The notes: generated from the sequence alone by a model not told the origin. A DNA stretch of 55,444 nt from Chlamydiota bacterium (GCA_013287215.1 JABDEH010000001.1:1-55444); one strand, 5' to 3'. Positions 43,984 through 49,899 are shown, counted from the stretch's first letter. Made by a program: numbers and translations.

Positions 43984-44178
43984 TCATCGTCTCCCATCGC
44001 TCATCTTGTCAAGATTTTCCAGGACTTCTAAATCTTCCAAAGGGACGATTGCCGCGGCAACTCCATCTTGCCCCCGTACGACAAACCTCTCCCCATTGTA
44101 GCAAGCTGCAACGAGTAACTCTTCCATTGGTCTCTCGATCTGATATATTCCTGTTTGACTACTCATATTCCACCTCAT
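43984..44178 (-). CDS. small protein with Phd/YefM-antitoxin-like sequence (tentative), immediately downstream of traA
   Basis: 64 aa. ...ERFVVRGQDGVAAAIVPLEDLEVLENLD resembles the Phd/YefM 'vvItrhGkpvAvlvs.edye.L' pattern. No cognate toxin is seen. Confidence 0.35.
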   Translation of the reverse strand: MRWNMSSQTGIYQIERPMEELLVAACYNGERFVVRGQDGVAAAIVPLEDLEVLENLDKMSDGRR

Positions 44179-44180
44179 CC

Positions 44181-47100
44181 TTATATAGTTTTTGTTGTTC
44201 CAGGACTGTTCTCCTGGGATAAATCTTTTTTCAGTGCTGGGGCAGTTTCCAGAATCTGTTGTTTTTCCACTTCTTTGCCGATATTTTGAGATAAGGCAAG
44301 CAGTTCCTGTCTTACCCTCTCTTTTTCTAAAGGATAGCCTAAAAGGGCTCGATCACAAGCGTTAGCCAACACCTTGTCTACGGAAAAATCAAAGACCGTT
44401 TTGTCCCCTACATTCATACCCGCTGAACCAAATTCTCTAATGACCCCCTTCATCTGCTCGATTTCAGTAGGCGCGGGTTCTTTGCCATGGCGGGCTTCAT
44501 AAAGAGACACCTGCCACGATAGTCGTGCGTCAAACTCCTGTTTACCGACTGAGCCCATGCGCTCCAACCTCTCTTCATGGCGGACAAATACCTTGGCCGC
44601 CTCTTTCAAGATCTCCTCATTAATTTTCCAGAACTGTGAGCCAAATTGCTTCTCCAGCTCCCCTCTTAGCCGTTCATCGATGCGCCAAAGAACTTCATTA
44701 GCCCTTGACCAATCCACAACAGACTTGTCTGACAAGGACGAAACCCGGTACACCACCTGTTGGGGATCAATCCCCTTCTGAGGGGCAGCTGCCAACAGAC
44801 CTTTCAAAAGGTCGCCACTCACATTAGGCGGAAGCAGATCGGCTAGGTCCCACTTTTCTGTGAAGTGCTTCTTCAAACTCTCAATATCCACCATGTGGAC
44901 AGATTTCAGACCCACCCTACGAAGCTCCCGGCAAACTTGATCCCCGGCCTGATAGCCGGCTTTATCATTATCGGGCCACACCATAACATCGCGGCCCATC
45001 AAAGGCGTCCAGTTCGCTTTATTGACTGCCCCGCTCCCCCCGGACCATGTCACGCATACATAATCTTTATCCGGGAATTTCTGCAGGGCCGCATCTGCTG
45101 TTTTTTCTCCCTCAACCACAAGGACTGTCGCATTAGGTTTTTCCTTCAATGCATGGAGGTTGTACAAAATAGACTTTTCGCTCTGAAACCCCTTTAAGTT
45201 CCAACTCAAAGCCTCTGGATTAGATTTCCAATATCCGTAACTTAACGGGGGCGTAATTTTTCTAGTCTGATCATGTCTGTCCCTCAGCCGCAGTACATAG
45301 TAGAGGAGCTGACCATTTTCATCCCTATAGGGATGGCGAGCCACCTCTTCAAAGTAATAATGCAGCTTCTTACCAGACAACTCCTCCAGTTTTGGAGCGG
45401 GAATATTGGGATCAGGCTTGACGCTCACCCATTCCGTTTCCTTGGAGCTCGCGGGAACACTCTTAGAAAAACCTTTGGGAACTTTGATATCAGGAGCTCC
45501 CCCTACAAATTTTTGGGCCCATTCCTTAGATTCTGCGGACTCCAATCCCAGCTCTCTCTGAATGAGTTTGAAAACCCCTCCCCCTTGCTGGTTCTCGAAA
45601 TCGTAAAACTGACCAATCTTTTCTCCTGCGCAAACCACAGAAAGCGATCCCTTAGATCCAAATCTCAAATGAGTTCTATCTCGGCCAGTGGGTCCTTCGG
45701 GAAATAACCGATAGAGAAGGGATTGAATATTCTCCTTCAATTGATCCTCTAAATTGGGCTTTTGTTGTTGATTTCTTTTTTCAAGGAACGTTACATGCCG
45801 CAAAGCCTGATCTTGAATGACAGTCACATGCTTTTTTCCAAAAATGTCCGACAATGCATCGACACCCACTTTGCTGACTAAATCCTGCGCTATCCCGTTC
45901 CGCTTACCGCAAGCCTCCATCCAGTCCTTGAAATGGGTGGTAGACTCGACATCCTTTGAGAACATGCTAGCCTCCACTTCGACCACATGCCGCACCGCAC
46001 CCGCCTCATCCGCCAATTTGAAATAAGACTTCGTCATTTCCTGTTGATCAGGGCTTAGGGCATCCCAAAGACGGCTTTTGCTCTGAGTGCACTTCAAAAA
46101 GACCTGATCGTAAGGCATACGCGCCTGCATTCCTGCTTCCCGGGTATTGAATGCAGGGTCAAGATTGCTCATTGAGGGGTTTTCTTTGATAGGAGCCTCT
46201 TCAACAACCATCGGCGCCGGCTGTCCGGTCTCCTTAACGAGCGCCTTGATATTTGAAGGAGCCGGGAAGTCCGGGCGGAAAAATTCCTGATTAGACGCTC
46301 TATCCTTCACAAGCTCCTGAACTTCCTCCACCTTACCTTTAAGGGTTTCATACACAGAAAGACCATATCCTTTGACGTTCTTCAAAATGGAATCGGACTC
46401 TTTCAGCTGTGCGATCTCTTGCTGTTTCTGCTCCATCTCTGCCTTTAAATTCGACTCTTCGACAGTGGTAAAGTTAAGCGTCGTTTCCTTCGCGCTACTT
46501 CTTCCCGTCTGTCTTTTTAGATCAGAGAGGCAGTGGGCCTCTTCATGAGAAACAAAATACTTCACATCTTTGACATGCCGGGTCAGCCCTACGTAGAATG
46601 CTTCCTTATTCAATTGTGCGCTGTGAAGCACGTACGCCTTGTCTACAGTCTGTCCCTGGGATCGATAAAACGTGCTGGCATAGCCCAGCTGATAAGAGCT
46701 GTATTCCGCAGGGTTGAAAGCAATGGTCCGCTTTTTCCCCTCCTCCTTCACAGCAACAACAAATTTGTTTTCCTTAGCCTCTATCAAAATCCCGGAAAGA
46801 CCATTCGATACCCCCATGTCCTTGTCATTTTTTCGAAATTCGATGTGATCCCCAATGCTGACGTAAATCTTCCCCATGGCTGTTTCGCAAGCAAACTCTT
46901 TATCCTCTAATTCTCCACGCTGTTTGCGGATCAACCTGACCATTTCATTGAGGACCCGAACCTCATCGTTCGTATGCGCAATGATTAAAGTGGAGGGCTT
47001 TGACAGCCATTGAGTATCCTTCGACCACTGATCCACTAACTCTTCCATCGCCTGATCTTTTGTCAGGAGCCATCGAATTCCCTGGTTAGCACAGAGCTTG

Positions 47101-48962: not shown

Positions 48963-49430
48963 ATGAAAACAGAAAAAATCCAAGCAAAAAAAGATTCGAT
49001 AGCACAAAAAAAAGCAAATTTGAAACAGAAAGAGAGGCTCTTGAACGAACAGGAAAGGAAATTGCGAACACGAAAATTAATCAAGGTTGGGGAAATTGCT
49101 TCTAAAGTAGGAATTGATGAGCTCGACTCCCCCACGCTGATGGGTGCCTTTTTAGAAATCAAGGAACGTTCCGTAAACCCAGAAACGTTAAAAAAATGGA
49201 GCGATAAGGGCAACGCTTTGCTTCAAGATGACCAGTTAAACTCTTCCATGCAATTGATCATTTCGTTTAATTCCTCAATAGAGGATGAAACCAAAGCGGT
49301 CCTGAAAAATAAGAAATTCAGTTGGAACCCCTTCCGCAAAGAATGGTATGGTTTCGGAAACTTGGAAGAAATTGAACGAATTCTCGCAAACAAGCAGGCC
49401 AAAATTGAAATTGTGCAACTGGAAAATTGA
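48963..49430 (+). CDS. traD: TraD_Ti-like conjugal transfer protein (tentative)
   Basis: ERKLRTRKLIKVGEIASKVGI resembles the conserved R.RDTR.KI.LGG.V.KAG core of Ti-type TraD. Divergent from traA. The ATG at 48963 has an AGAGGGG RBS. The track start at 48933 is a GTG. Confidence 0.5.
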   Translation: MKTEKIQAKKDSIAQKKANLKQKERLLNEQERKLRTRKLIKVGEIASKVGIDELDSPTLMGAFLEIKERSVNPETLKKWSDKGNALLQDDQLNSSMQLIISFNSSIEDETKAVLKNKKFSWNPFRKEWYGFGNLEEIERILANKQAKIEIVQLEN

Positions 49431-49446
49431 TATTTCCCTGAAGACG

Positions 49447-49899
49447 ATGTTTTGCGCTTTGTTTTTGGTGTCCAGCGCGGTGCTCCTGGCATCACTGATC
49501 AGCGAATACGTCTTTCTGCTAGTTCCCTGCAAGCTGTGCAACATCCAGCGAATCCTATACGGTCTGTTGGCTTTTGCGGCTCTGATCGGTTTCTTTTGTC
49601 CGTTGAACACCTGGATCCGAAAAGCCTGCCAAGGCATTTTGCTGGCCCTTTTCGCCACTGCAAGCTATCACACCTTGGTCCAGGTCGGGATCTTAGACGA
49701 TCGTTGCTCCACGAGTCCGCAAATCGTTGATGCATCATCGTTCAAGGCTTTGTTAAAAAATCCTCCAGTCCCCTGTTCCAGCGGCACATGGAAGATTGTG
49801 AAGGTGCCGGTGGCTTCTCTAAATGCTGGTTTGTCTTTGTTCCTCCTAGGCGTAATATCAAGGAGATCATGCAGCAGGAGAAATCCGCTGTCTGATTAA
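49447..49899 (+). CDS. dsbB: DsbB-family disulfide bond formation protein
   Basis: CxxC in the first periplasmic loop with a following QR (LLVPCKLCNIQRILY). A second Cys pair (DDRCSTSP...PVPCSSG) is present. 4 TM helices. Confidence 0.6.
   Translation: MFCALFLVSSAVLLASLISEYVFLLVPCKLCNIQRILYGLLAFAALIGFFCPLNTWIRKACQGILLALFATASYHTLVQVGILDDRCSTSPQIVDASSFKALLKNPPVPCSSGTWKIVKVPVASLNAGLSLFLLGVISRRSCSRRNPLSD

Follow-up and report, generated by a model that had tools for sequence, protein, structure and literature searches.

A putative DNA-transfer module with a three-domain TraA and a well-supported oriT candidate on a probable chlamydial plasmid

We have analyzed a DNA-transfer module located at positions 43984-49899 of a 55,444-nt stretch of DNA from a Chlamydiota bacterium (GCA_013287215.1, JABDEH010000001.1:1-55444); the full stretch is referred to here as the window. 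The module comprises traA, which encodes a relaxase-helicase-primase fusion, a divergent gene for a protein resembling the TraD of Ti plasmids, dsbB, a small open reading frame (ORF) behind traA, and, between traA and traD, a hairpin with a conserved core that is well supported as an origin of transfer (oriT). We put the probability at about three in four that this region is a working DNA-transfer (Dtr), or relaxosome, module and is carried by a large plasmid from an environmental chlamydia. The conclusion is carried by domain identities, intact catalytic motifs, conserved gene order, a covarying oriT stem and the plasmid context. A previous reading made from the sequence alone (the sequence-only reading) had proposed a Ti-type Dtr module with this TraA fusion, a TraD_Ti-like gene and dsbB, and the proposal is borne out by Pfam searches, motifs and coordinates.

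The traA gene occupies 44181-48737 on the minus strand and encodes 1518 aa with the TraA_Ti-I architecture, as assigned from Pfam, NCBIfam and homologues. Its MOBQ relaxase domain (residues 1-250; 47988-48737, minus strand) contains Pfam MobA_MobL (PF03389) at residues 18-232 (E 2.7e-24; 86.7 bits against a cut-off of 26.7), and a profile of the TraA family matched the NES relaxase 4ht4 in the PDB in two stretches (E 4.5e-27). The helicase domain, of the RecD/TraI type within superfamily 1B (SF1B), covers residues ~330-760 (46458-47750, minus strand). It matched Pfam AAA_30 at residues 370-556 (E 1.6e-44) and TraI_hel_assoc_N, and the family profile matched RecD2 3e1s (1.8e-21) and F TraI (1.4e-19). 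MobA_MobL and AAA_30, two of the three profiles named by the sequence-only reading, were both significant. The characteristic motifs were located at NWHAHVLI (with H169/H171), GYAGTGKS (392-399), EGEKTAD (1209-1215) and WPDNDKAGY (1254-1262).

Residue invariance was judged on an alignment of 32 TraA sequences. Invariant residues are Y25, E79/E82, H132 and N167-W-H169-x-H171 in the relaxase, Walker A residues G392/A394/G395/G397-K398-S399 plus D464-E465 in the helicase, and E1209-G-E1211-K and D1256-N-D1258 in the Toprim part. Window TraA keeps every one of these catalytic residues, and traA appears free of decay because the ORF is full length and all invariant motifs are present. A family-wide insertion of ~30 aa interrupts the His triad H132/H169/H171. 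The reference residues of R1162 MobA are Y25, E74, E76, H112, H120 and H122 (PMC6856555), which were related to the window relaxase residues by motif and without structural superposition.

The C-terminal TOPRIM domain of the sequence-only reading is supported by its motifs and by a DnaG-type fold, while Pfam Toprim itself remained below threshold (E 0.19). The claim also understated the extent of the region, since the domain appears, as judged from the modeled structure, to be part of a whole DnaG-like primase module at residues 985-1340 (44718-45785, minus strand). The AlphaFold2 model of these residues had a predicted local distance difference test (pLDDT) score of 87.7, and Foldseek returned as its top match Aquifex DnaG 2au3, which includes the zinc-binding domain (E 6.8e-8), together with T4 gp61, T7 gp4, the E. 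coli DnaG core and, lower, the zinc-binding domain 1d0q. The primase-fold matches range from E 7e-8 to 1e-4, but with TM-scores of ~0.3, and the zinc-binding-domain-like fold of TraA lacks conserved cysteines. Pfam DUF6371 matched residues 1186-1256 (E 3.8e-8). Sequence comparison of the primase part with the PDB gave nothing meaningful, whether a single sequence or an 18-sequence profile was used.

A search of 5.8 billion proteins at E <= 1e-10 yielded 566 matches to TraA. The best are 55% identical; identities of the homologues range from 37 to 55%, with alignments that span 95-100% of TraA, and their size is similar (~1450-1600 aa); those with names are nearly all from Chlamydiae, and several are plasmid-borne. 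More than 100 chlamydial proteins are full length with all three domains, including those of the Simkania negevensis plasmid pSn (NC_015710) and Protochlamydia naegleriophila plasmid pPNK (NZ_LN879503). The closest relatives are among Rhabdochlamydiaceae and uncultured Chlamydiae known as metagenome-assembled genomes (MAGs), and among species-representative genomes the best TraA match likewise has 55% identity. An identical TraA protein is not on record, and megablast against PLSDB gave no match.

The oriT candidate lies on the plus strand at 48793-48824, between the divergent traA and traD genes. Its inverted repeat, 48793-48819, reads GCAAT-GCAAAC, gta, GTTTGC, tt, ATTGC, and pairs at 11 positions with a 2-nt bulge; the 11-bp arms of the sequence-only reading thus exist, although the repeat is not perfect. 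As single-stranded DNA the hairpin has a predicted folding energy of -8 kcal/mol, and comparison with shuffled sequences gives z = -3.4. After the end of the inner stem at 48812 come TTATTGCG at 48813-48820 and then TAGT. An alignment of the window's traD-traA spacer with those of four relatives brought out a shared block, and a motif search then found a hairpin followed by (A/T)(T/C)ATTGCGT(A) in ~29 chlamydial loci, pPNK and pSn included. The motif is always on the strand opposite traA, usually 60-120 nt upstream of its start and ~350-660 nt upstream in L005, L001 and L006 (L-numbers denote loci or contigs encoding TraA homologues that were used for the synteny comparison).

In the 27 sites that were aligned, TTGCGT is invariant and the A before it nearly so. 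Across the ~29 loci, the core (A/T)(T/C)ATTGCGT is preceded by a hairpin of 6-8 bp. The stems differ in sequence while remaining self-complementary, with at least five versions: GCAAAC/GTTTGC, GTGTTG/CAACAC, GTGTTC/GAACAC, CATCAC/GTGATG and GCAATCTC/GAGATTGC. In the 27-sequence alignment, 93.8% of stem cells are paired, compared with 69% for shuffled data and 14-46% after sliding of the partner column, and changes on both sides (compensatory changes) occur in 5/6 stem pairs. This covariation offers qualitative support for an oriT. Because the stem covaries in loci whose TraA proteins are only 37-55% identical, the combination of hairpin and core appears well supported as the oriT, as the sequence-only reading had supposed for the intergenic repeat.

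In R1162/RSF1010 and NES systems, the nick falls directly after TGCG. By analogy, we predict the nick of the window on the plus strand between 48820 and 48821. The MOBQ oriT consensus is NWACCNNTAAGTGCGCCCTYNN, with the core TAAGTGCGCCCT (PMC3832669). The window core agrees with this core at 7/12 positions (T.A.TGCG...T) and has the same hairpin spacing. An oriT-like core in partial agreement with the MOBQ nic consensus is thus present; the bases 3' of the predicted nick differ. The full motif of hairpin plus core occurs once in the window. Two further copies of the 9-mer TATTGCGTA, at 36744-36752 (plus strand) and 51926-51934 (minus strand), were considered as second oriTs and rejected, having no hairpin ahead of them; three copies in the window compare with 0.23 expected, and the additional two are probably due to chance. 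Upstream of Rickettsiales and Holosporales homologues the motif was not found, the sole exception being a Pseudomonadota MAG (L043) with a related core. A separate observation concerns the 230-kb Parachlamydiaceae contig CBDAUP010000001.1 (L012 and L014), which carries two full traA copies, each with an oriT motif, and the two sites differ from each other at a few positions. A promoter and terminator scan of 43800-50400 gave counts not above those of shuffles and was uninformative.

On the far side of the oriT candidate, traD lies on the plus strand at 48963-49430 and encodes 155 aa when read from ATG. The ORF list begins it at GTG 48933 (165 aa); the ATG at 48963 is probably the true start because homologues align from residue 11. 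The protein matched Pfam TraD (PF06412) with 47 bits (cut-off 22.3) and E 2.4e-12 over model positions 2-61/62, has ~65 aa at its C-terminus beyond the 62-position model, and is a putative relaxosome accessory protein. The dsbB gene follows on the plus strand at 49447-49899 (~150 aa from M34). Its listed start is at 49348 (183 aa), and since homologues align from about residue 30, M34 is probably the actual start; with both starts revised, the apparent 83-nt overlap of the two genes disappears. DsbB matched Pfam PF02600 (61.2 bits, cut-off 22.1; E 1.9e-16), and two cysteine pairs, PCKLC and C-x23-C, could be read from the translation; NCBIfam DsbB equivalog models matched weakly (E ~0.002). 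Directly 3' of traA is a 64-aa ORF (43984-44178, minus strand) with a weak likeness to the Phd/YefM antitoxin fold (Pfam PhdYeFM E 0.011, below cut-off). Two copies of this ORF are found in L022, and a partner toxin is not evident.

The gene order dsbB, traD-like, divergent traA, small ORF recurs in L002 and L004 and, in variant form, in L005 and L022; L001 and L003 have traD and traA without an adjoining dsbB. By tblastn over the fetched loci, a traD-like gene is divergent from traA in 26, dsbB is present in 19 (usually beside traD) and the 64-aa ORF is found in 7, in the same place. A small ORF directly follows traA in L002 and L004, and on pSn, too, a small ORF comes after traA. DsbB is therefore a regular companion of the chlamydial Dtr module. 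Beyond dsbB is a 92-aa ORF (49978-50256, minus strand) that may encode a ribbon-helix-helix DNA-binding protein. It was considered as a NikA-like accessory factor, which was not upheld: syntenic homologues occur in L005 and L022 only and there was no family match, which leaves its membership in the module uncertain.

It is hypothesized that the binding site of TraA is the hairpin between traA and traD (48793-48819). The active site formed by Tyr25 and the His triad would then cut the plus strand ~8 nt 3' of the inner stem, after TTATTGCG, and TraA would stay covalently attached to the 5' end. The RecD-like helicase would unwind 5'->3', so that traD and dsbB would leave first and traA last. The DnaG-type primase may travel with the relaxase and prime the complementary strand in the recipient; primases of transfer systems, such as RP4 TraC and ColIb Sog, normally act in the recipient. 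The TraD_Ti-like protein would serve as a relaxosome accessory factor at oriT. F-like systems depend on disulfide formation, and for that reason DsbB may have a role in folding of the transfer apparatus, in which it would oxidize disulfides of cysteine-rich F-type pilus or channel proteins. Export would proceed through a coupling protein and an F-type type IV secretion system (T4SS) encoded outside the window, either elsewhere on this plasmid, which is the arrangement of pSn, or by a second replicon in trans.

The remainder of the window points to a plasmid. A tyrosine recombinase gene at 5782-7011 (plus strand), recognized by Pfam Phage_integrase, matched 122 PLSDB records by tblastn, all of them chlamydial plasmids, with 58% identity to Rhabdochlamydia plasmids. 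The 7.5-kb Chlamydia plasmids gave two matches each, which we take to be pGP7 and pGP8. The recombinase is 74% identical to that of L001/L006, contigs with ParA and pGP6/UPF0137 near traA. By these matches it is a recombinase of the chlamydial plasmid pGP7/8 type and not the integrase of an integrative conjugative element or phage. At the right end of the window, a 550-aa plasmid backbone protein with a helix-turn-helix-like C-terminus (53573-55225, minus strand) is 74% identical to a Criblamydia sequanensis plasmid protein and 62% identical to its L022 counterpart. Next to it, the window end cuts a DnaB-like (pGP1-type) helicase gene, of which the 3' 69 codons, or 207 nt, are included (55237-55443, minus strand); this fragment, identified by tblastn, has 80% identity to the Criblamydia plasmid DnaB-like protein (E 3.5e-29). 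The DnaB-like gene and the 550-aa gene are arranged as in the series ParA-x-DnaB-548aa of the Criblamydia sequanensis plasmid, where x is a small gene. Neither ParA nor pGP6 was seen in the window, and both would lie beyond its end if the order follows the Criblamydia plasmid. A pGP7/8-type recombinase and a pGP1-type DnaB-like helicase thus occur on the same DNA, the combination that marks a chlamydial plasmid backbone.

A tandem array of 6.8 copies of a 151-nt unit with 87% matches (52389-53424; Tandem Repeats Finder score 1329, also seen by self-BLAST) sits between a gene for an outer-membrane-protein-like product and the 550-aa backbone gene. Unrelated tandem repeats, made up of 2.6 copies of 106 nt and 3 copies of 22 nt, hold the same position beside the 550-aa homologue in L022, and this suggests that the array is a candidate iteron (oriV) or centromere region. 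Neither tRNA genes nor recognized housekeeping genes (by Pfam on ~50 ORFs) were found in the window, nor were att-like direct repeats, the tandem array being the only long direct repeat. There is no circular overlap of the window ends, and the window is not a closed circle, since the cut DnaB-like gene does not resume at the left end. Given the pGP7/8 recombinase, the DnaB-like end and the lack of tRNA genes, housekeeping genes and att repeats, the window is most likely part of a plasmid of >55 kb. We therefore assign it to a chlamydial plasmid backbone and not to an integrated element.

Several observations weigh against a working plasmid transfer module. No T4SS or coupling-protein genes were found in the window, that is, 44 kb to the left and 6.7 kb to the right of traA, by Pfam on ~50 ORFs and tblastn with 13 Simkania pSn transfer proteins. 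NCBIfam TraA_Ti (TIGR02768) scored 465.9 bits over model positions 1-743/751, which is below the equivalog cut-off of 590.45, and TraA is by this score a relative of Ti TraA and no equivalog. The stem covariation amounts to a handful of events in related sequences and not to 37 independent ones. The bases 3' of the predicted nick are TAGT, against CCCT in the MOBQ consensus. Finally, no report of experimentally demonstrated conjugation in Chlamydiae was found in the literature searched.

The first of these observations confirms what the sequence-only reading had stated about mating-pair-formation genes. On pSn, traA is at 35.8-40.6 kb, the coupling protein at 76.6 kb and the F-type cluster at 80.5-97 kb, which places them 36-56 kb from traA. 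Because the pSn T4SS is so distant, while the window ends 6.7 kb to the right of traA, the absence of a T4SS here is uninformative on its own. In L005, the closest relative, traB/K/E are found at most 10 kb from traA; in L004 and L014 a gene for a coupling protein is found in that range. Plasmid pPNK is typed as mobilizable, and no close TraC homologue from pPNK was among the top matches listed. For the plasmid of the window, both self-transmissibility and mobilizability are possible.

Partly on account of the tyrosine recombinase at 5.8 kb, the sequence-only reading had placed the window in an integrative or mobilizable element or a plasmid remnant. That the module belongs to an element of the integrative or mobilizable kind, or to plasmid DNA integrated in the chromosome, with the recombinase as its integrase, is in our view unlikely. 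Plasmid genes and T4SS are integrated in some chlamydial chromosomes (PMC7846284), L026 is a 1.55-Mb contig with only the C-terminal part of a traA homologue, and a tyrosine recombinase is indeed present. The recombinase is, however, of the pGP7/8 type with matches in PLSDB to chlamydial plasmids only; the window ends in a DnaB-like and a 550-aa gene in the Criblamydia plasmid order; and there are no tRNA genes, housekeeping genes or long direct repeats beyond the tandem array. The integrase argument is accordingly not supported, and of the alternatives that the sequence-only reading had offered, a plasmid is the best.

It is quite improbable that the module is a relic, in which the genes stay open but their use in transfer has been lost for want of a mating apparatus. 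The 55 kb without a T4SS or coupling protein would fit a relic, as would pPNK, which has the same module, is typed only as mobilizable and lacks a close TraC homologue among the top matches listed. Against this, the 1518-aa ORF is full length with every family-invariant catalytic residue kept, and the oriT hairpin and core are intact, with the family consensus at the invariant positions. The four-gene synteny has moreover been held at 37-55% protein identity, which argues for long-term purifying selection. The suggestion of a remnant or decayed element found no support, as traA is full length, has no inactivating frameshift and is covered over 95-100% by homologues of 1500-1550 aa.

A role of TraA and its nick site chiefly in replicating or maintaining the plasmid, by strand synthesis that the relaxase initiates or the primase primes, as with the MobA-RepB' fusion of RSF1010, is highly unlikely. 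In its favor, the relaxase is fused to what looks like a whole DnaG-type primase, the module is ~5 kb from the replicon genes and the tandem array, and it persists on pPNK, which is typed without a mating-pair-formation (MPF) system. Against it, the plasmid has its own DnaB-like/pGP1-type replication genes, transfer-system primases normally do their work in the recipient, F-type T4SS genes accompany the module on pSn and L005, and the same three-domain protein is found in the relaxosome of Rickettsia RAGE (Rickettsiales amplified genetic element; PMC10732058).

A plasmid transfer module thus remains our preferred reading, and it can be extended in a way that we consider doubtful. The hairpin and the core (A/T)TATTGCG, nicked before TA, might be a phylum-wide, undescribed and still-used transfer origin of chlamydial plasmids, with conjugation taking place within a shared host cell and with the plasmid DsbB as a lineage-specific helper of T4SS assembly. 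If an active oriT were in fact phylum-wide, the oriT/TraA cassette would be a route to conjugation-based genetics in chlamydiae. More immediately, a defined oriT and its relaxase could help conjugation tests or the construction of mobilizable vectors for environmental chlamydiae.

The finding leaves the overall picture unchanged, since the gene set and its architecture are known from chlamydial plasmids and from Rickettsia RAGE. Annotations of the module dsbB-traD, oriT region, traA-small ORF already exist for pSn and pPNK. On pSn, traD is labeled 'conjugal transfer protein TraD' and dsbB 'disulfide bond formation protein B', and dsbB is annotated on pPNK too. The window module is, by sequence comparison, a divergent member of this annotated set, with <=55% TraA identity to anything on record, and the three-domain fusion itself is already known from RAGE TraATi-I. 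The principal chlamydial plasmid study does not mention the relaxase, DsbB or oriT (PMC7846284), and no description of a chlamydial oriT was found in the open literature searched. The comparative definition of oriT is the sole element that is modestly new: a probable oriT of this relaxase family, consisting of a hairpin with a covarying stem and an invariant TTGCGT (ATTGCGT nearly everywhere).

The window also carries cargo genes, namely those for an OTU/UIM protease, leucine-rich-repeat proteins, a presumed RHS toxin accompanied by an Imm11 immunity gene, and AbiTii. A cysteine protease of the OTU/otubain type that has a ubiquitin-interaction motif (UIM; 3716-4750, plus strand) and a leucine-rich-repeat protein (12259-13332, plus strand) are eukaryote-like candidate effectors. 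An RHS-repeat protein of 1840 aa (23951-30066, minus strand) ends in DUF2380, presumably a toxin, and is followed by an Imm11-family immunity gene; RHS genes adjoin traA on pPNK as well. An AbiTii-domain protein (14343-15272, minus strand; E 1.6e-40) is a candidate abortive-infection or defense gene, and AbiJ and AbiEi/Eii are encoded near traA in L002 and L004. The 16-nt perfect palindrome TGTCGAACGTTCGACA occurs at 4801-4816, 30328-30343 and 43343-43358 (one copy with 1 mismatch), against 0.12 expected. Its copies lie outside the listed ORFs, after the OTU gene, upstream of the RHS toxin gene and upstream of the membrane-protein gene at 43421, and it may be the operator of a shared regulator. 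Paralogous families of no known function were also seen. One has three members (13397-14401, 21774-22712 and 22787-23677) with 23-29% identity, and further paralogues at 16725-19028, 35758-38080, 36441-39388 and 39568-43963 comprise a tandem pair (42%), a second pair (39%) and small membrane proteins of ~180 aa. For most of them, homologues are present on other chlamydial contigs with traA. A 172-aa ORF (35243-35761, minus strand) matches only the N-terminal part of major facilitator superfamily (MFS) transporters and may be a truncated gene.

Among known systems, RSF1010/R1162 MobA and staphylococcal NES share Tyr25 and the His triad with window TraA, although the latter has the ~30-aa insertion in the triad that they lack. 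Their oriT layout is also that of the window, namely a hairpin, ~8 nt ending in TGCG, and the nick, which is predicted in the window. RSF1010 MobA is primase-fused as well, with a primase, RepB', that is not of the DnaG/Toprim type, and the RSF1010 and NES relaxases have no helicase domain. At the nick, the window core TTATTGCG-TAGT stands against the consensus TAAGTGCG-CCCT (PMC3832669).

The Ti-type TraA proteins of Agrobacterium and Rhizobium (MOBQ2) combine a MobA/MobL relaxase with a RecD-like helicase, as does window TraA. They are 25-34% identical to residues 1 to ~960 of it only and have no primase part. In Ti-type plasmids, a TraC-TraD-TraG operon is divergent from traA and oriT lies in the intergenic region. 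The traD gene of the window (PF06412) is instead found without traC and traG and is accompanied by dsbB.

Rickettsia RAGE and rickettsial plasmids have a TraATi-I that unites relaxase, helicase and Toprim in one protein, is paired with TraDTi and works with an F-type T4SS (PMC10732058). The domain fusion and the TraD_Ti-like partner are common to RAGE and the window module, and Rickettsiales and Holosporales homologues align with TraA residues 1 to ~1310 at 24-40% identity. RAGE differs in being integrative and having an integrase of its own, whereas the window module stands in a plasmid backbone context with no T4SS in the window. DsbB homologues beside traD were found almost solely in chlamydial loci.

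The nearest counterparts are pSn and pPNK, which have the same order and orientation as the window, with dsbB, a traD-like gene and a divergent three-domain traA of ~1465-1595 aa; their TraA proteins are 42-43% identical to window TraA, and both are MOBQ by MOB-suite. Both plasmids share the oriT core of the window, ATATTGCGT, behind a hairpin upstream of traA, and the pSn stem differs from that of the window in a compensated manner (GTGTTG/CAACAC). pSn further shares with the window a small ORF after traA. Alongside the module, this plasmid itself encodes a full MPF_F set plus a coupling protein, and it is typed as MOBQ, MPF_F and conjugative.

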